Below, in pieces: positions 1-19,416 of a stretch of DNA of 21,703 bases. Under the pieces are notes generated by a model. The model saw only the letters and a list, made by a program, of their open reading frames with translations. It searched no databases and was not told where the DNA came from. Within the stretch, counting starts at the first letter, position 1. The number at the start of each line of letters is the position of its first letter. The translations under genes were made by a program, and so were the position numbers. The DNA is from Okeania sp. (GTDB lineage Bacteria; Cyanobacteriota; Cyanobacteriia; Cyanobacteriales; Microcoleaceae), in NCBI RefSeq assembly GCF_035285525.1, contig NZ_JAYKGW010000072.1, positions 1 to 21,703 of the forward strand, written 5' to 3'.

Positions 1-45
1 TAGCCCCCCCTTCCATCTTAGCCCCCCCTTCCATCTTAGCCCCCC
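1..45. repeat. 18-bp tandem repeat inside the TPR protein CDS
   Basis: tagcccccccttccatct occurs at 1-18 and 19-36, and a partial third copy starts at 37. The repeat is in frame (6 codons) and gives GGAKME repeats on the minus strand. It may continue beyond the window edge. Confidence 0.8.
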
Positions 46-1684
46 TTTCAAAGGGGGGTTGGGGGGATTCATCAGAAGCTTCTGGCCACTTCATCACCGA
101 CTCTCGATACAAAGAAATCAAGCGATCGATATCTTCTGCCACCCCTAAGTCAATCATTTCCACCTCAGAAGGTTTTCCTTGAGCTAAAACAAACGCTAGA
201 TACCGCGCCTTCTGCCAACTATCATTCATAAAATCAAAGACTCGAAACCGCACGAACTCCAACAACTTCGCCCCCTCTGGTAACTCTGAAGCTACTGCCC
301 GTCTGTCGCCCATTTGTTGCTGCATGGCAATTTCTGGCACCTCTCGCGTTAACTGTCTTTCTAACTCATTACATTCTTTTTGCAGTTGAGCTAACTGTTG
401 TTTGTGAGCTTCCCGTTTTTCTGGTGGCGGTACTTGATAGGTAAATGCTAAAAGTTGGTCGCACTTTTCTCGCCACAGTCGGAAAATCTTTTGGAGTCGT
501 GGAGAACGATCGTGGAAGACTGCTTGGTTTTGAGCAGCAAGAGCAGTTGCAGTTAGAGCTTTCCGTTTGAGGACGAGATTTAATGCAGCTTGTTTTGCTA
601 CTTGGGAGTGGGGGAGATATTGGTAGACTAAGGAGAGGAATATTTCAAGGTTAGGTCTGACTTTTTCTTGAATGTGGGCAAGGCGATCGCTTTCGGAACT
701 AGAAGCAAAGATAACTTGGATAGTTTTATCTTGGATTTTGCTAGCTTTGAGCATTAGTTTGAATGCTTCTTTGGGGCGATCGGTTTTTGCTAGTAATCCT
801 GCCAGGTTGTTGAGGTGGGTGGCGAGTTGTGGATGATTGGCAGGCAGGGCGATTTTGTCGATTTCTATGGCTTGTTGGAACAATGGTTCCGCTGCCTCGT
901 ATCTCCCTTGAGATTCATATAGTCCTGCCAGGTTGTTGAGGTGGGTGGCGAGTTCTGGATGATTGGCAGGCAGGGCGATTTTGTCGATTTCTATGGCTTG
1001 TTGGTACAATGGTTCCGCTGCCTCGTATCTCCCTTGAGAACGATATAATTCTGCCAGGTTGTTGAGACTGGAGGCACGTTGTGGATGATTGGCAGGCAGG
1101 GCGATTTTGTCGATTTCTATGGCTTGTTGGTACAATGGTTCCGCTGCCTCGTATCTCCCTTGAGATTCATATAGTCCTGCCAGGTTGTTGAGGTGGGTGG
1201 CGAGTTGTGGATGATTGGCAGGCAGGGCGATTTTGTCGATTTCTATGGCTTGTTGGTACAAAGGTTCCGCTGCCTCGTATCTCCCTTGAGAACGATATAA
1301 TCCTGCCAGGTTGTTGAGGGAAGTCGCCACGTTGGCATGACTTTCTCCCCAGAGTTGTAGTGCTAATGTCGCTGCTTGTTCAGCAATAGGTATTGCTTCA
1401 TCATATTTGCCTGCGTTGTAGAGTTCAATCACTTCGTTATTTAGTTGTTCCCACTCCTCCATCATTTTTGCTAGTCCTTCAGCAAAGCTTTGCAACCATT
1501 CTGCATTGCTTTCCCCATTTTCTCCCATCTTAGCTGCTACCAATTTCATCACTTCTACAAAAGCTTCACCCAATAACTGGGAATTAGCGTGTAAAATTGC
1601 TTGCTCCTCCCCGTTAGGGCAAGTTAGCAGTTGTTTAATTAAATTTAGATCAGCTTCTAAGCGTTGTTGTTGCTCTTCGTTCAT
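1..1684 (-). CDS. TPR-repeat protein: N-terminal ~560 aa of a probable TPR-CHAT family protein (3' end lies left of the window)
   Basis: The ATG is at 1684-1682, 7 nt after AGGAGA (reverse complement of tctcct, 1692-1697). I checked the frame by hand at both ends and it is open to position 1. It is absent from the ORF track because it has no stop inside the window. The translation starts MNEEQQQRLEADLNLIKQLLTCPNGEEQAILHANSQLLGEAF. Five 42-aa TPR units follow (LNNLAGLY.SQGRYEAAEPLYQQAIEIDKIALPANHP), then a helical linker (..LVLKRKALTATALAAQNQAV..). This N-terminal layout is typical of cyanobacterial TPR-CHAT proteins. The CHAT domain itself is not in the window, so that part is inference. Confidence 0.8.
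   Translation of the reverse strand, partial: MNEEQQQRLEADLNLIKQLLTCPNGEEQAILHANSQLLGEAFVEVMKLVAAKMGENGESNAEWLQSFAEGLAKMMEEWEQLNNEVIELYNAGKYDEAIPIAEQAATLALQLWGESHANVATSLNNLAGLYRSQGRYEAAEPLYQQAIEIDKIALPANHPQLATHLNNLAGLYESQGRYEAAEPLYQQAIEIDKIALPANHPQRASSLNNLAELYRSQGRYEAAEPLYQQAIEIDKIALPANHPELATHLNNLAGLYESQGRYEAAEPLFQQAIEIDKIALPANHPQLATHLNNLAGLLAKTDRPKEAFKLMLKASKIQDKTIQVIFASSSESDRLAHIQEKVRPNLEIFLSLVYQYLPHSQVAKQAALNLVLKRKALTATALAAQNQAVFHDRSPRLQKIFRLWREKCDQLLAFTYQVPPPEKREAHKQQLAQLQKECNELERQLTREVPEIAMQQQMGDRRAVASELPEGAKLLEFVRFRVFDFMNDSWQKARYLAFVLAQGKPSEVEMIDLGVAEDIDRLISLYRESVMKWPEASDESPQPPFERGAKMEGGAKMEGGA
798..1427. repeat. 126-bp tandem repeat (5 units) encoding 42-aa TPR units
   Basis: Units start at 798, 924, 1050, 1176 and 1302, an exact 126-bp period. 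Units 1-4 are nearly identical at nucleotide level, with long identical cores (gatgattggcaggcagggcgattttgtcgatttctatggcttgttgg). Unit 5 is diverged. Confidence 0.9.
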
Positions 1685-1817: not shown

Positions 1818-1852
1818 TAACTTATTGCTGTAAGCGTTTAACTCGAATCAAT
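1818..1852 (-). pseudogene. 3'-terminal remnant of a DUF5615 (PIN-like/Mut7-C) toxin gene
   Basis: ctaacttattgctgtaagcgtttaactcgaatcaat matches the last codons plus stop of the DUF5615 pseudogene at 4496-4530 (taacttattgctgtgggcgtttaactcgaatcaat). The rest of the toxin gene is missing between here and the DUF433 gene at 1902. Confidence 0.55.
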
Positions 1853-1901
1853 AATAAATCCGTGCATCCGTCGCAAAATCAGTGTCTAGCTCCCATCTAG
1901 C

Positions 1902-2198
1902 TCAAGCTTCCTCGTTTTCCTGAATAGCACGTTCGATTTCTTCTGCATTAGCCTCAGCATAAACCCAAGCATTAGCAATATCAGTAACCCGAAGAGTAGG
2001 ATAGTCTTGTAGCAACTCCGACTCACTCATACCCAAACGACGAGCATTAACTAATACCCACACAGGAATGCGAGTACCAGCAATACAAGCATCACCACCA
2101 CAAACACCCGGAGTTTTTTCAATACCAGAATAAATATTAGCCAAACTTTGAGCTAAAAGTTGGATAGCTTGAAGTTTTTCCGCTGGAGTTAATGCCAA
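1902..2198 (-). CDS. DUF433-type antitoxin-like protein (paralog 1, possibly decaying)
   Basis: This is a 98-aa ORF containing GVCGGDACIAGTRIPVWVLVNARRLG, the motif I associate with DUF433. It is highly similar to the paralog at 4845-5171. The paralog's start ATGAAATTAAAAGAT reads ATAAAATTAAAAGAT here (ATA at 2228-2226, in frame). About 12 nt carrying the paralog's GGAG Shine-Dalgarno are absent, so only a TTG start at 2198 remains. Confidence 0.6.
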   Translation of the reverse strand: MALTPAEKLQAIQLLAQSLANIYSGIEKTPGVCGGDACIAGTRIPVWVLVNARRLGMSESELLQDYPTLRVTDIANAWVYAEANAEEIERAIQENEEA

Positions 2199-2238
2199 AA
2201 GTTGGGGTTCTAAATCTTTTAATTTTATAGTATCTAAT

Positions 2239-2328
2239 GTAGGTTGGGTAGAACAAAGTGAAATTCAACAAAACCTTATTCTGATAAAAGGCTATTTTTG
2301 TTGGGTTTCGTTCCTCAACCCAACCTAC
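2239..2328. repeat. MITE-like or hairpin dispersed repeat (gtaggttggg ... cccaacctac)
   Basis: The arms gtaggttgggtagaac (2239-2254) and gttcctcaacccaacctac (2310-2328) form an imperfect inverted repeat. Related motifs (gtaggggtt(t)gg...ccaaaccc) recur at 6535-6562 and 14561-14612. Confidence 0.5.
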
Positions 2329-2443
2329 AGTTATTGAACTTCTACTCAAAGAACCTTAATTTGTTATAATGCCCATCTCAGGCAATTTTTTTCTCAATTC
2401 CTTTTTCGGGAAATAGAGGCGATCGCTTTTTTTTGGCAAACTT

Positions 2444-2472
2444 TTGAAAACACTATACAACTTATTTATATA
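2444..2472 (+). promoter_or_regulatory. Sigma70-type promoter for the Phd/YefM-like gene
   Basis: TTGAAA (2444-2449), an exact 17-nt spacer, then TATATA (2467-2472). The predicted TSS is about 30 nt upstream of the ATG at 2511. Confidence 0.55.
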
Positions 2473-2510
2473 TTAAAATCAGAATATCAAATCATTATCG
2501 CCGTGAAAGT

Positions 2511-2924
2511 ATGAAAAAATTGGACTTAAAGGAAACCAATATTGACCTAACAGTAATTATTGACGAAATTGCTGCTAACCAGTCTGAAGTTGTCATTACC
2601 CGCCAAGGTTTGCCAGTTGCTCGTATTGTTCCTTATACAATTTCTGACGCATCTACAAAAAATTATCCATTACGGGGAATGCCAATCAAAACTTCTGCTG
2701 ATTTCGATGAACCGATGTCTGAACTTTGGGATGCTTTAGGAGAACGAAAATTTGGTAGTGCGGGCATCTTGCCCGCGATGGGTGTACCTCATAACAGTCA
2801 AACCGCTGTATTATTGGGCAATCGGCTCAACCACAGTAAATGGAATATTTTCCAAAACTACCTGTGGCAAGTCGCCAGCACCCAAAACATTTTGGGCATC
2901 CAGAATTTCTACCCCAACCAATAA
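2511..2924 (+). CDS. Phd/YefM-family antitoxin-like protein with an abnormal 3' extension
   Basis: The N-terminal ~78 aa (MKKLDLKETNIDLTVIIDEIAANQSEVVITRQGLPVARIVPY...ADFDEPMSELWDALGE) look like a complete Phd/YefM-type antitoxin. The ORF then reads on for ~55 aa through a gcgggcatcttgcccgc hairpin repeat (about 2760-2776). It overlaps the convergent DUF2283 gene by ~110 nt, so the true 3' end is uncertain. No toxin gene follows. Confidence 0.6.
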   Translation: MKKLDLKETNIDLTVIIDEIAANQSEVVITRQGLPVARIVPYTISDASTKNYPLRGMPIKTSADFDEPMSELWDALGERKFGSAGILPAMGVPHNSQTAVLLGNRLNHSKWNIFQNYLWQVASTQNILGIQNFYPNQ

Positions 2925-3044
2925 TTCACCCTCACCGATATTGAGAGCTATTTCATCAGTTAAACGGAGAGTGCGACACTCATGTTTACCTTCTACTAAA
3001 CGAATGTAAACAGCATCAATTTCAGAATCATAACTAATTTTCAT
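2811..3044 (-). CDS. DUF2283-type small protein
   Basis: The ATG at 3044 is preceded by AGGAGA (caaggagaagacaATG). The 77-aa product is MKISYDSEIDAVYIRLVEGKHECRTLRLTDEIALNIGEGELLVGVEILDAQNVLG, a pattern I recognise as DUF2283. The 27 codons upstream in the ORF-track version run through a palindromic repeat and are probably not translated. Confidence 0.7.
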   Translation of the reverse strand: MKISYDSEIDAVYIRLVEGKHECRTLRLTDEIALNIGEGELLVGVEILDAQNVLGAGDLPQVVLENIPFTVVEPIAQ

Positions 3045-3054
3045 TGTCTTCTCC

Positions 3055-3104
3055 TTGTTAAAAAAACGATAACCCTGTAGGGACGTTGCATGCAACGTCC
3101 CTAC
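3055..3104 (-). terminator. Intrinsic-terminator-like element: 28-nt perfect palindrome followed by a T-run
   Basis: gtagggacgttgcatgcaacgtccctac lies at 3077-3104, 59 nt after the stop of the DUF4384 gene. On the minus strand it is followed by agggttatcgTTTTTTTaaca. Confidence 0.55.
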
Positions 3105-3162
3105 TTTATATTTTCTCCTCACCAATATTCAGTCATAAACTACCTCTGACTTGCGCGTAGCA

Positions 3163-3966
3163 CTAAACAACCTTATAATCCATATACCACAAAGTAGAAT
3201 CTGACTTACCCTCAAAATAGGCCAAAAATTCCTGCAAATGCTCTCCCTCCAAGTGTAAAGGTGGTTGATTTGGTTTCGGCAACCAATCTAACTTTGGGCG
3301 TTCGGGAGCGATCGCTACTATTATCTCCTCAACCCCTGGTTTACCTTTCAGCTTAAAAGATTTTATAGATGCTCCCTCCATTGGTAACAATACTGCACCC
3401 GCTTCATTAAAACTAGGAGAAGGCGCCAGAAACGAGGGCGACAAACAATAAAATTTGCCAGAAGTACCTTTTTCCAATAGAGTCAAATATCCCGGACGTT
3501 CCAACTGTACCTCAAATTTAATTTCACTGCCCAAAGGTACGCTACTAGGATAATCAGAATCATGTTGCCACATATCCATTGTGCTAACCTTTGGGATAAC
3601 GGGACCCATTTTATTAGTTGAAACAGCCATATTTTTCAACATATACCAACGATAAACTATTTCACGCAACCACCGTTTAGCAATTTCAACTTTATCTCTT
3701 TTCGCTCCCTCAAAATCACAACCTTCAGCCTCTAATTTTTTAAATATTGTTCTTAAAGAGTCACGCAAAATAATATCTGGCGTTGCTTTTTGACTAGCAT
3801 TTTCTAATAAATTCTCTGATAAAACATCAGCCAGTGCTGGATTATTACAATCATCATTATCTATTTTAAACCGTTGGATAAATACCAGCCTAGTTTTATC
3901 TTTAAGCATCAATATATCGGCTATTTTTTCTAGGAAAGTGTTGTAACTTTTCTCTAACATCATCAA
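3163..3966 (-). CDS. DUF4384-type protein with an unassigned ~110-aa helical N-terminal domain
   Basis: This is a 267-aa ORF with three consecutive ATG codons at the start. The C-terminal half (VPLGSEIKFEVQLERPGYLTLLEKGTSGKFYCLSP...LLPMEG...FKLKGKPGVEEIIVAIAPERP) fits the DUF4384 pattern as I remember it. I cannot name the N-terminal domain (KTRLVFIQRF...LRTIFKKLEAEGCDFEGAKRDKVEIAKRWL). Confidence 0.7.
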   Translation of the reverse strand: MMMLEKSYNTFLEKIADILMLKDKTRLVFIQRFKIDNDDCNNPALADVLSENLLENASQKATPDIILRDSLRTIFKKLEAEGCDFEGAKRDKVEIAKRWLREIVYRWYMLKNMAVSTNKMGPVIPKVSTMDMWQHDSDYPSSVPLGSEIKFEVQLERPGYLTLLEKGTSGKFYCLSPSFLAPSPSFNEAGAVLLPMEGASIKSFKLKGKPGVEEIIVAIAPERPKLDWLPKPNQPPLHLEGEHLQEFLAYFEGKSDSTLWYMDYKVV

Positions 3967-3994
3967 CTATTCCTTTTCGATAGGTTCGCCTACA

Positions 3995-4023
3995 ATTATA
4001 TTTCGATAAATTCAAACTAGCAA
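3995..4023 (-). promoter_or_regulatory. Near-consensus sigma70 promoter for the DUF4384 gene
   Basis: On the minus strand: TTGCTA (4023-4018), a 17-nt spacer (4017-4001), then TATAAT (4000-3995). The predicted TSS is near 3988, about 22 nt before the ATG at 3966, and aaggaa lies in that leader. Confidence 0.6.
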
Positions 4024-4030
4024 TAACAAT

Positions 4031-4158
4031 TCTACATATTTCTACATGACTCTATCTGGTTCTACATTGCTCTATTTTGATTCAAAACTTATCTTTTTTC
4101 TACTATTTTCAATTATTTCTACTTTAATCAAACTTCTATTTAACTCCTTTTTTTCTAT
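4031..4158. promoter_or_regulatory. Array of nine same-orientation TCTAY motifs, five of them at exact 10-bp phasing
   Basis: tctac/tctat occur at 4031, 4041, 4051, 4061 and 4071 (exact 10-bp spacing), then at 4099, 4118, 4135 and 4154. The array sits immediately upstream of the predicted -35 of the DUF4384 promoter, in the divergent intergenic region. Confidence 0.5.
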
Positions 4159-4193: not shown

Positions 4194-4397
4194 ATGGTTC
4201 AAAAAAATAAAGAGAATAAAATGTATAAGTCAACGAAAATATTATTAATCTCAATTATTGCTGGAAGTATTTTCAGTATTCTCTCAGTAATCAATAATCG
4301 GGATGCCCAACAAATTAGTCAAGCTATTGAAAGTGGAGTAACAATGACATCTAGTATTTCTGCTTTACTAATCAGCTTAAAAAATACCGAGGAATAG
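4194..4397 (+). CDS. Hypothetical small membrane protein (weak call)
   Basis: This is a 67-aa ORF with one hydrophobic stretch (ILLISIIAGSIFSILSV). I found no convincing RBS and no recognisable family. Confidence 0.3.
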   Translation: MVQKNKENKMYKSTKILLISIIAGSIFSILSVINNRDAQQISQAIESGVTMTSSISALLISLKNTEE

Positions 4398-4405
4398 TTA
4401 AATAG

Positions 4406-4495
4406 AAAGTCACGAAGATTAACAGTTAAAACAGCACGCTCATCTGCAACAGCTAATTTCATAGTTTATTCCTGGGTATCTATATAATATGTTAT
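4406..4495 (-). pseudogene. Remnant of a third DUF433/DUF5615 module (chimeric stub)
   Basis: catagtttattcctgggtatcta (from 4460) is homologous to the start and upstream region of the DUF433 gene at 5169 (catagttgactcctgagtatcta). The stub reads MKLAVADERAVLTVNLRDF. Its ERAVLT.N..DF matches the middle of the DUF5615 pseudogene (NERAVLTLNRVDFF). Confidence 0.4.
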
Positions 4496-4499
4496 TAAC

Positions 4500-4841
4500 T
4501 TATTGCTGTGGGCGTTTAACTCGAATCAATTGACCTTTTAACGTTTCTTGAGTACAAATTGCCTCATTAATTCTATTAGCCATCCTTTCTCTGTCAAAAT
4601 CATCCTTACAAGCAATAATACCCCCATGATTTGATGAAATACGATGCAGTCGAAAAAAATCAACTCGATTTAAAGTTAAAACTGCACGTTCATTTTGAGT
4701 AGCAAAAGCTAGTACCTCTGGATCGGGAATCTTTTGGTTAGCTAACCCCGCTTCTTACACTGTCAGAACATCGTGACCAAAAGTCCTGAGCAACTCCACA
4801 ACCCGTTTAGGAAACTGTTCGTCAGCATAGAGACGTGCCAT
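4500..4841 (-). pseudogene. DUF5615 (PIN-like) toxin gene with one in-frame nonsense codon
   Basis: The ATG at 4841 lies 3 nt after the DUF433 stop, a typical TA operon spacing. I translated the full 114-codon frame by hand: MARLYADEQFPKRVVELLRTFGHDVLTV*EAGLANQKIPDPEVLAFATQNERAVLTLNRVDFFRLHRISSNHGGIIACKDDFDRERMANRINEAICTQETLKGQLIRVKRPQQ*. The premature TAA is at 4757-4755 (codon 29). Confidence 0.75.
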
Positions 4842-4844
4842 AGG

Positions 4845-5171
4845 TTAAATCTCCTCATTTTCTCGAATAGCTAACTCAATATCCTGAGAATATACCTCAG
4901 TATAATTCCAAGCATTAACCAGATCCACTGCCTGGAGACTAGGATAGTCTTGCAACAACTCCGACTCACTCACTCCCAAACGACGAGCATTAACTAATAC
5001 CCACACAGGAATGCGAGTACCAGCAATACAAGCATCACCACCACAAACACCGGGAGTTTTTTCGATACCAGACCAAGTATTAGCTAAATTTTGAGTTAAA
5101 AGTTGGATAGCTTGAAATTTTTCTGTCGGAGTTAATGCCAAAAGTTGAGGTTCTAAATCTTTTAATTTCAT
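4845..5171 (-). CDS. DUF433-type antitoxin-like protein (paralog 2, intact)
   Basis: The ATG at 5171 is preceded by AGGAG (ctcaggagtcaactATG). The 108-aa product is MKLKDLEPQLLALTPTEKFQAIQLL...GVCGGDACIAGTRIPVWVLVNARRLG. The ORF-track version (to 5237) adds 22 unlikely N-terminal codons. Confidence 0.8.
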   Translation of the reverse strand: MKLKDLEPQLLALTPTEKFQAIQLLTQNLANTWSGIEKTPGVCGGDACIAGTRIPVWVLVNARRLGVSESELLQDYPSLQAVDLVNAWNYTEVYSQDIELAIRENEEI

Positions 5172-5347
5172 AGTTGACTCCTGAGTATCTACTATTATTT
5201 TATCTATCATATAATTTTCCCCATTAATTAACCACAATACAAAAATACGGCATAGATAATTTAGTCATCTAAAGATAACTTCAGCTATTAGCCAAGGATT
5301 TCAATTATTGGCGAACTTAGTGCATCGGATAGAAAATTATTCAGACA

Positions 5348-6489: not shown

Positions 6490-6659
6490 AATTACCTCTA
6501 TTGATAAACTTGAGTTTCAGTTCGTAGTTATCTGTAGGGGTTTGGTTTCCAAACCCAATAGACAGTATAAACAGTAAGCACAATAATTTCTGATGGTGCG
6601 TTAGCGACAACGTAACGCACCCTACTGGAGTGTTTCATCTAAAACTGTGCATTAGATAT

Positions 6660-7055
6660 TCTCCCTTATCTCCCTTGTCCTCCTTATCTCCCTTGTCCTC
6701 CTTATCTCCCTTATCTCCCTTGTCCTCCTTATCTACCTTGTCTCCCTTATCCTCCTTATCTCCCTTATCTCCCTTGTCCTCCTTATCTCCCTTATCTCCC
6801 TTGTCTCCCTTATCTCCCTTATCTCCCTTGTCTCCCTTATCCTCCTTATCTCCCTTATCCTCCTTGTCTCCCTTGTCCTCCTTATCTCCCTTGTCTCCCT
6901 TATCCTCCTTGTCTCCCTTATCTCCCTTATCTCCCTTATCCTCCTTATCCTCCTTGTCTCCCTTATCCTCCTTATCTCCCTTGTCTCCCTTGTCCTCCTT
7001 ATCTCCCTTGTCCTCCTTATCTCCCTTGTCCTCCTTGTCCTCCTTATCTTCCTTC
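6660..7055. repeat. Tandem array of a 9-bp unit TC(TC/CT)CCTT(A/G): 43 clean units plus 1 degenerate unit
   Basis: Units start at 6660+9n and I verified the register at 6732, 7020, 7029 and 7038. Only four unit types occur (tctccctta, tctcccttg, tcctcctta, tcctccttg), apart from one tctaccttg at 6732. The array ends 1-2 nt before the stop codon of the VOC gene (7057-7059). Confidence 0.95.
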
Positions 7056-7056
7056 T

Positions 7057-8073
7057 TTACTTACTAATTAAATTCCAAAAATAACCATCAGGAGCAACAA
7101 AAGAAAAACTCTGTTCCCCAAACTCATTATCAATAATATCTGTAATTTGTATCACTCCTGAATTTTTAATTCGCTCAAAATAATATTCTATATTATTAAC
7201 TCGATAAGTATACAAAGACATTCCTAAACAACCTGGTTGTGACTGATAATAACCAAACTCCAAATTAATATTTTCAGGAAACCGAATAATATACAATCTG
7301 CCAGATCGCGCTTTTTGCCAATCTGTGGAAGAGCGGGGATCGTCAAAAGCAGTCAGTGTAAATTTTTCCCCTGGTTGCAAATCAAAAATTTGTCTCGCTG
7401 CTTCCGAACTTTCATAAGAAGTTTCCGAGTTATCCCGCGATCGCAATAAACCCAACACATCCTCATAAAACTGCAAGGTTTCCTTACTATCATCCTGCAC
7501 TATCATCCCTACATGGGTAAATTGACTGGTTTTGAAAGTGCAATCAGGATTAATTTTGCCATATTCTGGCACTGTATAATTGAAACGTTGAAACAACACC
7601 TGGCGCGTCAATGGTTGCAACAACATCATTTCCCGGACTCCCACTGCGGGATCGATAAATGGGCGACCTTTATCTGTTTTATAAATTATCTCCCACTGGG
7701 GAAAAGTGTATTTGATTGGCAAACCTGCTAACTTGCCATCCTCAGCATGATTAAGAATATTCAAAACATCAGTAGTTAAACTTGTTGCCCAACGGTTGCC
7801 CAAAACTTTCATAGATGTCATTTGTAAACCTTGATTAATAGGTTTTTCCCAAACCATCAGGCGAATTAAACCATGATCGACATTTTGGTGATAGAGTCGA
7901 ATGGAACGCAAATTAGAATTGACTCCATATAAATTTTGAACCGTAGAAGCAGTTAATTCTCCTGTTTTGCCAATGCGATAACCAAATTGTTGCCAATATT
8001 GAATCATTGACAAAGGTTCAGTGGTACCGATACAGACTTCGTAGATACCTTCAATAGTGGGGTTATTATTCAT
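7057..8073 (-). CDS. Two-domain VOC (glyoxalase/bleomycin-resistance/dioxygenase) superfamily protein
   Basis: This is a 338-aa ORF. The second half begins FTHVGMIVQDDSKETLQFYEDVLGLL, a typical VOC beta-alpha-beta start. The first half (IEGIYEVCIGTTEPLSMIQYWQQFGY) looks like a second VOC module. Confidence 0.6.
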   Translation of the reverse strand: MNNNPTIEGIYEVCIGTTEPLSMIQYWQQFGYRIGKTGELTASTVQNLYGVNSNLRSIRLYHQNVDHGLIRLMVWEKPINQGLQMTSMKVLGNRWATSLTTDVLNILNHAEDGKLAGLPIKYTFPQWEIIYKTDKGRPFIDPAVGVREMMLLQPLTRQVLFQRFNYTVPEYGKINPDCTFKTSQFTHVGMIVQDDSKETLQFYEDVLGLLRSRDNSETSYESSEAARQIFDLQPGEKFTLTAFDDPRSSTDWQKARSGRLYIIRFPENINLEFGYYQSQPGCLGMSLYTYRVNNIEYYFERIKNSGVIQITDIIDNEFGEQSFSFVAPDGYFWNLISK

Positions 8074-15002: not shown

Positions 15003-16113
15003 TATTCTTTTTTTATCCTCCTAAAAAAAAGGAGGCTTCAGACCTAAATTTTTCGGTGAAATAAAGCAACGCGGGCAAGATGCCTGCACTAGAAAAATTT
15101 AATTATATCACCTCAGCTTATCTTAGATTAACAGGACTTACGCAAAGAAACCGGGTTTTTAGGATAAATCGTTGTTTTTAACAATAAACATTGACGAAAA
15201 ACCCGGTTTCTAGGTTCGTTTGTGTAAGTCCTAATTAATTTTTTAGATATTTTTTAGCCCAAGCATATCTCCTTTCATCTTTTTTCAGCAAATATTCTAT
15301 AATTTCTCGTCGCTTATTCTTTTTGCTAGTCTCTTGAACTAATCGCTTAATTTCTTTATCAATATCTTCCGTCTTAGCTCCTCTTTTTCGTGCCTCTTCA
15401 AACCAATAATCTCCATCTCCATATTCTCCTAGACCATAACAAATAGCCCCCATTAAAGTACAAGGATGATGACTTTTAGAATCAATTTTATGAGCTTGTA
15501 AAGCCAGATGTTTGCCTTCATTTAATTGGCTAACATCTCTAAAAGCAGCACCTCTAGTTACAAGTATTCTAGCCTTAAGGTCTTTATCTTTTAATTTCTC
15601 TAAATTGACTTTACCTGTGATTTCTAATGCTTTTAATGGTTTCTTTGCCTTGCGCCAATAACTACTAATTTTAGGGATTAGCCATTTATTTTTAGTTCTC
15701 TTAAATTCTTCCTCAAAAAAATCAGCCTCAATCTGATAATAAGTAATGGCAATCTTACTACCAAGATACAGCAAATTCTCAGTTGTTAACTGAGTAAACA
15801 TTAATTTGTCTAATCGCTCTCCTTTATCTAGTCTGCTAAGAATATTGTAGAAAGGATCGAATTTTAATTTCTGGTCTGTAGCTAAATATTTATCTCGGAG
15901 TCTTTTCCAATCTTTATCTTTAGCTATTTTAACAATTTTATTCAAACCATGTGACTTTAACCAATCAATATCTACTTCTATTAACTGAGAAAATTGTTCT
16001 ACTTTTTGGAGAATTTCATACAAATTACTATCAGGTGATGAATCTTCAAACTCAGTAACTTTGTATTTTTTCTTGAGTCGAGTAAACTCTATTTTGTGTT
16101 TTTGTTTATCCGC
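15003..16113. repeat. Segmental duplication, copy 1 (gene tail plus 3' flank; includes the MITE)
   Basis: This segment aligns with 17001-18018 across ~880 nt of coding sequence plus ~115 nt of 3' flank. It contains an identical 73-nt run (15677-15749 = 17570-17642). Confidence 0.85.
15125..15232. mobile_element. ~108-bp MITE inserted 2 nt downstream of the 558-aa gene's stop codon
   Basis: The inverted ends are aggacttacgcaaagaaaccgggttt (15133-) and aaacccggtttc...tttgtgtaagtcct (-15232). The paralogous flank at 17121-17130 (atctt|aattaatt) is an uninterrupted empty site. Confidence 0.7.
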
Positions 16114-16911
16114 AATAGAAAATGTCTCAGTTAGTTTATTTTTTTGTAACCAATCTAACTCTGATTTTTCCAAAATAGTTTCTGTCTCTAGTTTTTTCAA
16201 TATTGAAAATAATTTACTAGAGATAGATTTATCCCAATATTTAGTAGCTTGATACTTATCTTTTAGTTCTGCAAATTTAGCTTCATCCTCTCTTTGTTTT
16301 TGTTTCTTACGCTCCGAATAAATTTCTAGAGTTTCCAAGAAACCATTATTTGATAACCAATTAGATTCTTGCTTATTTAATGTCTCCGCTGAGTCAATTT
16401 TTTTCAGAATACGAAACAATTTATCCGGGAAAAATCTTGATATGTTAGTAGCACGGTATTTAATTTTTAATTTGGCAAATTCTTGGATTTGATTAGCGAT
16501 CGCTAAAGTTTCCTTTAAATTATAATCTTTCAGTAATTTAATTTCTGAATCAGTTAATATATTTTCACTATCAAGTTTCAAAAGTAGCGGATGTAAAAAA
16601 TAAAATCCAAAATTTTTGGGTACTTTGTATCTTGTTTTGAGTTCCAAGAAGTCATATCCTAATCTTTTCAGCTCAGTTTTCTTGTATTGCTTTAAGTTCA
16701 GCTCTAAGTTAATTAGTTTGATAGTTTCAAAAAGTTGATTTGCTTCTAAATATTGAAATTCTATGTCTGTAATTGAAATACCTAAATCAACTCTTCTAAG
16801 TATAAGATATAGAAAGCTTAAAGGAGATGAATTTTGATATTTAGTTGCCTGATACTTAGACTTGAGAAGAGAAAAATGTTGCACCTGAATTTCATGTTCG
16901 TCTTTACCCAT
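15235..16911 (-). CDS. Helical repeat protein of unknown family (about six ~60-aa repeats plus a TPR-like C-terminal cap)
   Basis: This is a 558-aa ORF. A repeated pattern F..LK.KY(x7-12)L(F/Y).IL.K(x6-8)L...(E/D)..WL...(x)L.ET occurs at about aa 13, 88, 145, 213, 275 and 333. The C-terminus has two TPR-like 34-mers (ARILVTRGAAFRDVSQLNEGKHLALQAHKIDSKS / HHPCTLMGAICYGLGEYGDGDYWFEEARKRGAKT). Confidence 0.7.
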   Translation of the reverse strand: MGKDEHEIQVQHFSLLKSKYQATKYQNSSPLSFLYLILRRVDLGISITDIEFQYLEANQLFETIKLINLELNLKQYKKTELKRLGYDFLELKTRYKVPKNFGFYFLHPLLLKLDSENILTDSEIKLLKDYNLKETLAIANQIQEFAKLKIKYRATNISRFFPDKLFRILKKIDSAETLNKQESNWLSNNGFLETLEIYSERKKQKQREDEAKFAELKDKYQATKYWDKSISSKLFSILKKLETETILEKSELDWLQKNKLTETFSIADKQKHKIEFTRLKKKYKVTEFEDSSPDSNLYEILQKVEQFSQLIEVDIDWLKSHGLNKIVKIAKDKDWKRLRDKYLATDQKLKFDPFYNILSRLDKGERLDKLMFTQLTTENLLYLGSKIAITYYQIEADFFEEEFKRTKNKWLIPKISSYWRKAKKPLKALEITGKVNLEKLKDKDLKARILVTRGAAFRDVSQLNEGKHLALQAHKIDSKSHHPCTLMGAICYGLGEYGDGDYWFEEARKRGAKTEDIDKEIKRLVQETSKKNKRREIIEYLLKKDERRYAWAKKYLKN

Positions 16912-17000: not shown

Positions 17001-18018
17001 TATTCCTCTTTTTTTATCCTCCTAAAAACAAGGATACTTCAGACCTAAACTTTTGGGTGAAATACACCCACACAGACAAAATACCCGCACTCGAAATATT
17101 TAATTATCTCACCTAAGCTGATCTTAATTAATTTTTTAGATATTCTCTAGCCCAAGCATATTTCCTGTCATCTTTTTTCAGTAGATATTCTATAATTTCT
17201 TTTCGCTTATTATTGTTGCTAGTATCTTGAACTAATCGCTTAATTTCTCGATCAATGTCTTTTATATAAGCTCCTCTTTTTCGCGCCTCTTCAAACCAAT
17301 AATCTCCATCTTGATATTCTCCTAGAGCAAAACAAGTAGTCCCCAATAAAGTACAAGGATGATGACTTTTATAATCAATTTTATGAGCTTGTAAAGCCAG
17401 ATTTTTGGCTTCATTTAAGTTGTAATTATCCCTAAAAGCACCACCTCTAGTTACAAGTATTCTAGCCTTAAGGTCTTGATCCTTTAATTTCTCTAAATTT
17501 ACTTTACTTGTAATTTCTAATGCTTTTAATGGTTCCTCTGCTTTGCACCAATAACTACTAATTTTAGGAATTAGCCATTTATTTTTAGTTCTCTTAAATT
17601 CTTCCTCAAAAAAATCAGCCTCAATCTGATAATAAGTAATGGTAATATTGCTGCTAGGAGTTAGCAAATTCTCAGTTGTTAACTGAGTAAACATTAATTT
17701 GTCTAATTGCTCTCCTCGATCTAGTTTACTAAGAATATTGTAGAAAGGATCGAATTTTAATTTCCGGTCTGTAGCTACATATTTATCTTGGAGTCTTATC
17801 CAATCTGTTTCCAAATATTTGTCTTCAGCTACTTTAATAATTTTAGTCAAATTATATGACTTTAACCAATCAATATCTGCCTTTGTTAGCCGCTCAACTA
17901 CCTCTATTTTTTGGAGAATTTTATACAAATTACTATCAGGTGATGAATCTTCAAATTCAGTCACTTTGTATTTTTCCTTGAGTCTAGTAAACTCTATTTT
18001 ATATTTTTGTTTCTCCGC
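17001..18018. repeat. Segmental duplication, copy 2 (forms the C-terminal third of the P450 fusion ORF plus its 3' flank)
   Basis: See 15003-16113. This copy lacks the MITE. Confidence 0.85.
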
Positions 18019-19416
18019 AATATAGTCTCTTTTTTGTTTTTGTTTCTCCGCAGAAGGCAATATTTCTTCCCCCTGCATACGTTTTCCAGTCATCACCATT
18101 TTTATTCCACCCGCAGGAGATAAAGTTATACTACGACGTTCTGTTTTAACTGGTTGTTTTTCTGCTAAAGCCAAATTATAGCGTCTGAGAATAGTTGCTA
18201 ATACCAGTTTCATTTCAAACATAGCAAACGCTGCTCCAATGCAACGCCGATTACTACCGCCAAAAGGTAAAAATTCGTAAGCAGAATATTGACGTTCTAA
18301 AAATCGTTCTGGTTTAAATTTCTTTGGTTCAGGATACAAATCTTCTCGGTGATGAGTTAAATAAATACAGGGAACTAAACCAGTTCCCGCTGGGTATTCT
18401 TGACCCATTATTGTGATCGGCGATTTTGTTTCTCGTGGAGATGTAATCAATACCACTGGATAAATACGCAGGGATTCACTGCAAACTGCATTCAGATAGG
18501 GTAGTTTCATGATTTCCATTGGGTTGGTATCGTCCCCAATAGTTGCTAATTCTTGTAATAGCTTGTCATAAATTTCTGACTGATGGTGACTCCAGTAAAA
18601 CGCCCAGGCTAAAGCAGTTGCAGTGGTTTCATGTCCTGCCAATAGTAATGTCATCAACTCATCCTGCAATTCTATATCGCTCATACCTTCCCCCGCTTCA
18701 TCCCGTGCTAATAAAAGCATTGTCAAAATATCAGAACGTTCGGGGTCTAAATTTTGACGACGTTCAGAAATTTCTGCACACAGTAACTCGTAAATCTCTT
18801 CCCTTTCTTTGGTAAATTTTCCCCAGGGACTCCAAGTACCTAGACCTATTTGTAGAAACTCGAAAAATAACATACTTGCTTTCGCCGGAGAACTCAATGA
18901 TTCCATAAGTGAACCCAAAAGTCGCTCTAATCTAGAGTACCTTTCTCCTTCATATAAACCGAAAACTGCTTGTAATATTACTTTTAAAGATATCTCTTGA
19001 GTAGATTTTCTCATCGAAAATACCCTATCCACTTGCCACTTGCTAGCTACCTGTTCAGTGATATTACAAATTAACTCTCCATAAGTTTGCATTCGTTCCC
19101 CATGAAAAGGTGGCATCAATAATTGACGTTGACGTTGATGAGGAGTACCATCTAATAATAATAATGAATAATCTCCCAAAAGTGGCTGCAAAAACTTATT
19201 ACCAGAACCACACTCAAACTGTTTTGGGTTAGTCTTGAAAATTTCCTCAATGGCCTTGGGATGGCTGATAAATACCATTGGGTAATTCAAGTTTATTTCA
19301 AATGAGTCTCCATATTGCCTTGCACATTTTTCCATAAATGTCAAGGGTTCAGTCACCCATTGGAAGAGTTGAATCAAACGTGGAGCTTTTGGACCAGGCA
19401 ATTGTGTCATAGTCAT
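17128..19416 (-). CDS. Cytochrome P450 (resembles the Nostocales CYP110 type) fused in frame to a ~296-aa helical-repeat/TPR-like module
   Basis: This is a 762-aa ORF. The P450 motifs are AGHETT (aa 260-265), ESLR (aa 314-317) and FLPFGGSNRRCIG, with Cys392 encoded at 18243-18241. The P450 fold ends near aa 446 (..GGIKMVMTGKR). Residues 467-762 are roughly 80-90% identical (by eye) to aa 267-558 of the neighbouring ORF. Confidence 0.8.
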   Translation of the reverse strand: MTMTQLPGPKAPRLIQLFQWVTEPLTFMEKCARQYGDSFEINLNYPMVFISHPKAIEEIFKTNPKQFECGSGNKFLQPLLGDYSLLLLDGTPHQRQRQLLMPPFHGERMQTYGELICNITEQVASKWQVDRVFSMRKSTQEISLKVILQAVFGLYEGERYSRLERLLGSLMESLSSPAKASMLFFEFLQIGLGTWSPWGKFTKEREEIYELLCAEISERRQNLDPERSDILTMLLLARDEAGEGMSDIELQDELMTLLLAGHETTATALAWAFYWSHHQSEIYDKLLQELATIGDDTNPMEIMKLPYLNAVCSESLRIYPVVLITSPRETKSPITIMGQEYPAGTGLVPCIYLTHHREDLYPEPKKFKPERFLERQYSAYEFLPFGGSNRRCIGAAFAMFEMKLVLATILRRYNLALAEKQPVKTERRSITLSPAGGIKMVMTGKRMQGEEILPSAEKQKQKRDYIAEKQKYKIEFTRLKEKYKVTEFEDSSPDSNLYKILQKIEVVERLTKADIDWLKSYNLTKIIKVAEDKYLETDWIRLQDKYVATDRKLKFDPFYNILSKLDRGEQLDKLMFTQLTTENLLTPSSNITITYYQIEADFFEEEFKRTKNKWLIPKISSYWCKAEEPLKALEITSKVNLEKLKDQDLKARILVTRGGAFRDNYNLNEAKNLALQAHKIDYKSHHPCTLLGTTCFALGEYQDGDYWFEEARKRGAYIKDIDREIKRLVQDTSNNNKRKEIIEYLLKKDDRKYAWAREYLKN

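Follow-up and report, generated by a model that had tools for sequence, protein, structure and literature searches.

Phased RTAGA repeats upstream of a DUF4384 gene in Okeania and five further genera: a probable operator at a DUF4384/TPR-CHAT protease module

Upstream of a gene for a DUF4384 protein in Okeania sp., nine copies of the word TCTAY are crowded into one intergenic region, and five of them follow each other at intervals of exactly 10 bp. The region belongs to a stretch of 21,703 nucleotides (contig NZ_JAYKGW010000072.1, positions 1 to 21,703), which is referred to in its full length as the window; the same stretch also holds the 5′ part of a gene for a TPR-CHAT (caspase-like) protease. 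What could such an array be for? An earlier inspection of the letters, here called the sequence-only reading, had noticed the repeats beside a predicted promoter and had considered binding of a regulator, iterons or intrinsic DNA curvature. We found that the array is non-random. From genus to genus it keeps its core, its phase and its distance from the promoter, while spacers and copy number vary. In our view the array is probably a direct-repeat operator for a transcription factor at the predicted DUF4384 promoter, and the factor would most likely be an activator of the OmpR/PhoB type.

The number and the phasing of the words were verified position by position, and all nine copies, including the five at 10-bp intervals, were found where they had been placed, on a single strand (Table 1). 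Read towards the DUF4384 gene the word is RTAGA, which appears as TCTAY on the + strand, and there is no TCTAY on the opposite strand between positions 3900 and 4300. The sequence-only reading had expected the copy number to exceed chance and had left the calculation to be done. The 227-bp intergenic region, which has a GC content of 25%, was shuffled 20,000 times, each time with its dinucleotides preserved. The shuffled sequences contained 2.3 TCTAY words on average and 8 at most, and none of the 20,000 reached the nine that are observed. The longest exact 10-bp chain in any shuffle consisted of three words, compared with five in the array. The average over the whole window is 0.39 words per 128 bp, and no other stretch of this length, on either strand, comes near the array in their number. 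The longer pattern RTAGAR-N4-RTAGAR, for which 0.06 occurrences would be expected in the 21.7-kb window, is found there four times and always within the array. The phased TCTAY array is thus far from chance. A scan of the window against Rfam matched no known RNA family.

To see how far the array extends beyond this genome, DNA around homologues of the DUF4384 protein was fetched and the upstream regions were read in gene orientation; the loci carry labels from L001 onwards. Three to five nTAGA cores at 10-bp phase precede DUF4384-family genes in six genera of filamentous cyanobacteria (Okeania, Trichodesmium, Dapis, Aerosakkonema, Oscillatoria and Symplocastrum), over a range of protein identity from 87% to 40%. 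Among L001-L007 of the Okeania group (77-87% identity) the array is preserved in full, with three, four or five phased proximal copies, and the differences in array length between orthologues amount to exactly 10 or 20 bp, so that the phase is preserved. At 73% identity, three loci (L008-L010) carry GGTAGAAGTT three times in tandem within upstream sequence that otherwise looks unrelated, as judged here and below at sight with the sequences side by side; their divergent neighbour is a different gene, encoding a Cas4-like PD-(D/E)XK protein. Phased copies were also present in Okeania SIO3B5 (L015, 52%), in Dapis (L016, 47%), in two Trichodesmium paralogues (L012, L013, L018), in Oscillatoria princeps (L139, 41%) and in Symplocastrum torsivum (L141, 40%). 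The array of Aerosakkonema (L050, 42%) was recovered by a genome scan with the pattern only and was then seen to stand before a DUF4384-family gene. When 250-bp upstream regions were shuffled, three TAGA at 10-bp phase arose in 1 to 13 of 20,000 shuffles in each of seven lineages.

Across about 133 kb of related loci, arrays of at least three copies occur only before DUF4384 genes and before the Trichodesmium TPR-CHAT gene. This second array of Trichodesmium (L018, L012) has a promoter-like site behind it. Conservation in orthologous intergenic regions, on which the sequence-only reading had made its proposal depend, hence holds down to 40% protein identity, for the array as well as for its core and its distance to the promoter. 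The four distal copies behave differently from the proximal ones. They are kept only in close orthologues of the Okeania group, where the whole intergenic region is 86% identical, whereas in distant orthologues distal copies are placed differently or are missing. A function of the distal copies is therefore not independently supported.

The repeat unit was described by a matrix of 53 units taken from 13 promoter instances. The T, A, G and A of the core are each found in 52-53 of the 53 units, and the leading core base is G or A in all 53, with G given for 77% and A for 21%. The base following the core is a purine (R, A or G), position -2 of the unit is an A in approximately 90% of cases, and the remaining spacer positions carry only about 0.2-0.3 bit. 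The unit can thus be written A-n-G-T-A-G-A-R, with eight constrained positions and about two free ones, and it is gained or lost in exact steps of 10 bp. The composition of the spacers differs between lineages (AGTT, CCAG, AAAA, TCGAC) while the core stays fixed.

Next to the array lies the sigma-70-type promoter-like site that the sequence-only reading had proposed, TTGCTA and TATAAT separated by 17 nt, and we find it at the place and on the strand given for it. The claimed distance of 8 nt between promoter and array is essentially right: the gap from the -35 hexamer to the nearest core is 7 nt, or 8 nt counted from start to start. The gene that the promoter faces also proved to be of the DUF4384 type, as had been suggested. 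It is plausible that the predicted promoter, whose position is conserved, serves this gene. With a transcription start site (TSS) near 3988, placed by assuming that it lies 7 nt downstream of the -10 hexamer, the five proximal cores of the window would cover about -47/-43, -57/-53, -67/-63, -77/-73 and -87/-83, and the proximal pair of sites would be centered around -52. Other genomes contributed 15 promoter instances, and in 10 of them the elements follow in the same order: the last core, a gap of 7 nt, a hexamer, a spacer of 17 nt and TAnnnT, which agrees with TATAAT in at least five of six positions. It is also present in L008, L018 and L141, whose flanks look unrelated. In L002-L007 a poor -35 hexamer, TGGCGG, with two of six positions matching, is paired with a perfect TATAAT, which suggests that these predicted promoters have the look of activator-dependent ones.

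A separate feature of the promoter region is a direct repeat (3966-3987 and 3992-4013) with copies that are 73% identical, lie 26 bp apart and read GAAyyTATCGAAA in gene orientation. One copy is located within the spacer between -35 and -10, and the other one in the 5′ untranslated region of the DUF4384 gene. The spacer copy resembles the Trichodesmium promoter sequence TTTTGATTTTATTGAAATATCAT. This repeat may be a second operator.

How can these properties be explained? A conserved G-containing word in AT-rich DNA, free spacers, an exact phase, insertions and deletions of whole units and a fixed distance to the promoter point to a row of protein-binding sites. Since the same position is kept in six genera, the row would be a docking array for a transcription factor. 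The direct orientation, the period of 10 bp, the coverage from about -40 to -90 and the weak -35 are what would be expected of an activator in contact with RNA polymerase, a behavior known from the OmpR/PhoB family. Binding by a protein, the type of that protein, activation rather than repression and the place of the TSS are inferred. With one unit for each turn of the helix, the factor would be aligned along a single face of the DNA just upstream of -35, and the proximal pair of sites near -52 would place it beside RNA polymerase. There it would control the promoter of the DUF4384 gene, which in relatives is followed by the TPR-CHAT protease gene. With respect to the options of the sequence-only reading, cooperative binding to direct repeats of the response-regulator type is backed by the conservation, while the iteron-like alternative is not, as no replication gene is found. 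Response-regulator repeats fit better than iterons because of this lack of a replication gene and because the synteny is that of an ordinary chromosomal locus.

Arrays of this general kind, i.e. phased direct-repeat operators upstream of -35, are known, and what is new is the word; the presumed target, the DUF4384 protein with its TPR-CHAT partner, is of interest. The OmpR boxes of ompF and ompC, the pho boxes and the tor boxes consist of tandem direct half-sites with a period of 10-11 bp, located between approximately -40 and -100 and abutting a weak -35. Proteins of the OmpR/PhoB family bind to them head to tail on one face. The array resembles these operators in its tandem direct half-sites of the same period on one face and in sites that abut a weak -35 (for the predicted promoters, with a gap of 7 nt and a 2/6 hexamer in L002-L007), and differs from them in its word and in the odd copy number of several genomes. 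ToxR of Vibrio cholerae binds an array of TTTTGAT heptads upstream of ctxAB, which has a period of 7 bp and is not helically phased. Both arrays are tandem direct repeats upstream of -35 with a variable copy number and a short recognized core, but period, organism, word and factor differ.

The closest cyanobacterial comparison is HLR1, which consists of two 8-nt repeats (G/T)TTACA(T/A)(T/A) with 2 nt between them and is bound by the OmpR-type regulator RpaB (PMC6525291). HLR1 activates when centered about 50 nt upstream of the TSS, with an activating range from -66 to -45, and represses when it lies over the TSS (PMC6525291); HLR1 sites have been reported on either strand (10.1101/443713). The array shares with HLR1 the direct repeats, an occurrence on either strand, the 8-nt unit followed by 2 free nucleotides and the resulting 10-bp period, and a TAC(A)T part is common to both words. 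The proximal pair is centered at about -52, compared with about -51 for activating HLR1, where our value depends on a TSS taken from the -10 hexamer alone. However, the unit YTCTACnT of the + strand matches only 6-7 of the 8 HLR1 positions and thus departs from the consensus, the array has 3-5 phased copies plus the distal ones instead of one pair, and it has so far been seen at one gene module. In our interpretation the array works like an operator of the HLR1/OmpR type. We do not file it as HLR1, because of an invariant C in place of T and because of the presence of 3-5 copies rather than two.

Several observations weigh against an operator of this kind. The array word is unlike every cyanobacterial operator that we checked or know of, and the invariant T2 of HLR1 is replaced by C in 52 of 53 array units. 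No regulator gene is conserved beside the array locus in the orthologous neighborhoods compared. The promoter geometry is not uniform either: L015 and L016 have no clear -35/-10 at the standard distance, L139 has no good -10 at that distance, and L050 conforms only when a copy displaced to 9 bp is included. The array is missing from one Trichodesmium paralogue (L011-L014), apparently after insertion of an element that resembles a miniature inverted-repeat transposable element (MITE). Furthermore, a genome scan with KGTAGAR three times at 10 bp gave at least 120 listed matches, most of which are simple repeats without relation to the array (from Gemmatimonadota, Acidobacteriota, Bacteroidales, a metagenome-assembled genome (MAG) of Metamycoplasmataceae and others); among the matches listed, a DUF4384-family gene accompanies only L050 and L072. 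A metagenome scan with a stricter pattern returned at least 120 stretches; those listed are all near-perfect simple tandem repeats, and none of them stands beside a DUF4384 homologue; the few that were inspected lie in coding-poor DNA. A literature search for GTAGA/TCTACA as a cyanobacterial operator led to primer sequences and unrelated matches only.

Two side observations were made during these comparisons. The MITE-like element, with inverted repeats CAGGACTTACG...CGTAAGTCCTG, is inserted in Trichodesmium promoter regions (L011-L014; L012/L013 at approximately 2150-2270). In one paralogue it occupies the expected place of the array; in the other one it stands between the proximal array and the distal copies. 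In Streptococcus oralis (L058, L097), 3-6 tandem AATAAGGTAG units form an unrelated phased GTAGA array directly upstream of a gene whose product starts with MKHILVIEDE..., by eye a start like that of a response-regulator receiver domain.

We weighed the operator against other explanations, beginning with the one that keeps the operator and names its factor. RpaB itself could bind the array as a variant set of HLR1 sites, and the module would then be linked to signaling by light or redox state. The common format, a proximal pair that would fall within the activating range, the 6-7 matching positions of YTCTACnT together with the indifference of HLR1 to the strand, and a core invariant across genera, as expected for a highly conserved factor, all agree with this. 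Yet with C at the T2 equivalent the consensus is missed systematically, and HLR1 has been described as a single pair of repeats while the array has more copies; we regard RpaB as an unlikely candidate. A dedicated protein would be dispensable if intrinsic curvature or an UP-like element stimulated the promoter. Right before -35 the sequence has a periodicity of 10 bp, the spacers of L015 are A-rich, and four A/T tracts between the proximal and the distal copies (ATTTT 4074, AAAA 4084, TTTTTT 4094 and ATTTT 4105) follow each other at roughly 10-bp intervals and could produce a local bend within 4074-4109. This part of the sequence-only reading is nevertheless not supported by the conserved word, which is G-T-A-G-A and not an A/T tract, with two conserved G per unit in DNA of 25% GC. 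The proximal array contains no A4/T4 tract, and the AA/TT autocorrelation at lag 10 is weak (0.09-0.15; both assessed by parameter-free A-tract and autocorrelation counts). Spacer composition varies between lineages around a fixed core, and the pattern is not that of an UP element or of phased A-tracts. We consider curvature very unlikely. Should the array instead be a functionless short tandem repeat produced by replication slippage, the change from 3 to 5 copies between close relatives in whole-unit steps would be explained. Perfect 10-bp repeats containing GTAGA are indeed common in unrelated genomes and metagenomes, and short tandem repeats are abundant in cyanobacterial genomes, with several elsewhere in the window. 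What slippage leaves unexplained is the same core, orientation and promoter distance in six genera and the divergence of spacers alongside a fixed core, which also set the array apart from short tandemly repeated repetitive sequences, and we give it hardly any credence. Least of all do we expect iterons of a replication origin or arm-type sites of a recombinase or transposase. Multiple direct repeats in an AT-rich intergenic region and genes of the PD-(D/E)XK 'transposase' family near some of the loci could suggest them, but the units measure 10 bp rather than 17-22 bp, neither a replication initiator nor an integrase gene was found, the chromosomal synteny is conserved and PDDEXK_2 genes are inconsistently present.

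The remaining alternative concerns the DUF4384 protein, which might regulate its own gene by binding the GTAGA repeats with its N-terminal domain, possibly after the TPR-CHAT protease has cleaved a linker. The best matches of the protein are 87% identical in Okeania sp. KiyG1 and 64-75% in Trichodesmium MAGs. Its AlphaFold model has a predicted local distance difference test (pLDDT) score of 90.5 and comprises a helical N-terminal domain (residues 1-111), a low-confidence linker (125-134) and a C-terminal DUF4384 beta-sandwich. Just upstream of the linker stretch, in a region of about residues 112-135, lies the motif T-[DN]-K-M-G-P, in which T115 is invariant and P120 nearly so. By analogy with Csx30/Csx29, the neighboring CHAT protease might recognize or cleave the protein at this motif. 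Csx30 is a transcription-modulating substrate of the TPR-CHAT protease Csx29, and in one group of Csx30 proteins the C-terminal domain is a DUF4384 domain (10.1101/2022.08.17.504292). The present locus resembles that of Csx30/Csx29 (type III-E CRISPR 'Craspase') in the succession of a DUF4384 protein and a TPR-CHAT protease, a comparison of genes and not of the array; it differs in having no CRISPR or Cas7-11 genes and in an N-terminal domain without detectable sequence or fold similarity to anything solved. Confinement of the array to this module within the approximately 133 kb scanned is what a dedicated regulator encoded by the module would give, and a separate, confidently modeled N-terminal domain followed by the motif and the linker suits the idea as well. 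Nevertheless, no sign of DNA binding was detected in this domain: Pfam and NCBIfam gave no match, profile searches of the protein against the PDB matched nothing, Foldseek found no match with the whole model or with the N-terminal domain alone (best E=2), and the charge, from a residue count by hand, is roughly neutral. A helix-turn-helix (HTH) of the sigma-region-4/LuxR type, which the N-terminus resembles by eye, was rejected, as the model has a 14-residue insert in place of the turn; the HTH idea likewise lacks any Foldseek or profile-search match. In addition, the core word is invariant although the N-terminal domain has diverged to about 40% identity, for which a slowly evolving housekeeping factor is the better fit. 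Autoregulation therefore appears improbable to us. The more far-reaching version, a CRISPR-independent Craspase-like switch in which the N-terminal domain would be a new DNA-binding fold that polymerizes on the repeats and cleavage of the conserved linker by CHAT would rewire transcription of the module, is more doubtful still.

The genes around the putative operator are collected with its parts in Table 1. Full-length orthologues of the TPR-CHAT protease have approximately 1,150-1,240 amino acids (aa), with TPR_12/TPR_10 repeats and a C-terminal CHAT domain (Pfam). The large TPR protein had also been considered as a regulator like MalT or SARP, which was rejected since it combines TPR and CHAT and has no DNA-binding domain. 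Its gene directly follows the DUF4384 gene in L005, L007, L008, L139 and L141. In the window the two are separated by inserted genes of the toxin-antitoxin type (DUF2283, Phd-like, DUF433). A metal repressor of the CsoR type, an HtrA-like protease, the small open reading frame (ORF), the DUF4384 gene and the TPR-CHAT gene are common to the window and Okeania SIO3B5 (L015), and the locus is an ordinary syntenic one on the chromosome of a marine filamentous cyanobacterium, not a plasmid or a phage. For the divergent small ORF the sequence-only reading had given a start at 4194, which has to be corrected, as the conserved start is the ATG at 4221. In L002-L007, L015 and L018 the ORF has been called as a gene, 58 aa long; its protein identity is 67-74%, and it has no family matches. 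It is absent from L008-L010, yet the array persists there.

Table 1. Features of the array, the promoter region and the neighboring genes in the window.
Feature	Position	Strand	Remarks
TCTAY words (n=9)	4031, 4041, 4051, 4061, 4071, 4099, 4118, 4135, 4154	+	
Proximal array, five units in exact 10-bp phase, (A)nRTAGAR	4031..4075	-	Position and phase conserved in orthologues
Distal copies of the array word (4099, 4118, 4135, 4154)	4099..4158	-	Same orientation; spacings 19, 17, 19 bp
Sigma-70-type promoter-like site, TTGCTA-17-TATAAT	3995..4023	-	10/12 positions matched; faces the DUF4384 gene
Putative target gene, DUF4384	3163..3966	-	Pfam E=3e-9; likely start ATG 3963 or 3960
Divergent small ORF, 58 aa, two hydrophobic stretches	4221..4397	+	Conserved beside the array in the Okeania/Trichodesmium group
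TPR-CHAT (caspase-like) protease gene, 5′ part	1..1683	-	From translation; runs off the left end of the window
DUF433 paralogues (two)	1902-2198, 4845-5237		
DUF2283 gene	2811-3125		
Phd-like ORF	2511-2924		

Some further observations concern the surroundings of the module. Genes of the toxin-antitoxin type and their remnants are inserted around it at 1830-3125 and 4319-5237. By eye, the ORFs at 4319-4462 and at about 1830-1900 look like decayed partners of the DUF5615/PIN type, and PIN or DUF433/DUF5615 pairs are located at the corresponding position of related loci. The TPR-CHAT gene contains a 126-bp tandem repeat (794-1380, 4.2 copies, 92% identical) that encodes near-identical 42-aa TPR units, which suggests a recent expansion or homogenization of the repeats. 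A conserved leader of about 110 nt before the same gene holds the palindrome ATAGA-GG-TCTAT (1764-1775 on the minus strand of the window; about 4590-4605 in L018). It consists of the core word of the array and its inverse, is kept between the window and Trichodesmium L018, and in L018 lies about 60 nt downstream of a -10-like hexamer. In this palindrome the factor of the array might have another type of site.

Two other features of the window lie farther away. A tandem array with periods of 9, 18 and 27 bp at 6630-7067, in which an 18-mer is repeated about 22 times, can be read as an ORF with SPLS/SLS repeats and is probably non-coding short tandem repeat DNA, not a gene. The adjacent genes at 15235-16911 and 17128-19416, both on the minus strand, have in common a C-terminal region of about 300 aa, about 80% identical by eye and without a Pfam match; in the latter gene a complete cytochrome P450 domain is joined to this region.

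Filamentous cyanobacteria are rich in TPR-CHAT and other caspase-like proteases, which reviews discuss in connection with programmed cell death and the collapse of blooms. In the literature we found nothing on the control of TPR-CHAT or caspase-like proteases in filamentous cyanobacteria. A conserved operator of fixed geometry would offer a handle on it, as a bait for the regulator, as a pattern for a search of the regulon and as a target for mutagenesis of the DUF4384/TPR-CHAT module. By analogy with Csx30/Csx29, the DUF4384/TPR-CHAT pair may be a protease and its substrate. If the Craspase-like switch were true, bloom-formers such as Trichodesmium would have a transcription factor that is controlled by a protease and connected with the caspase-like proteases.

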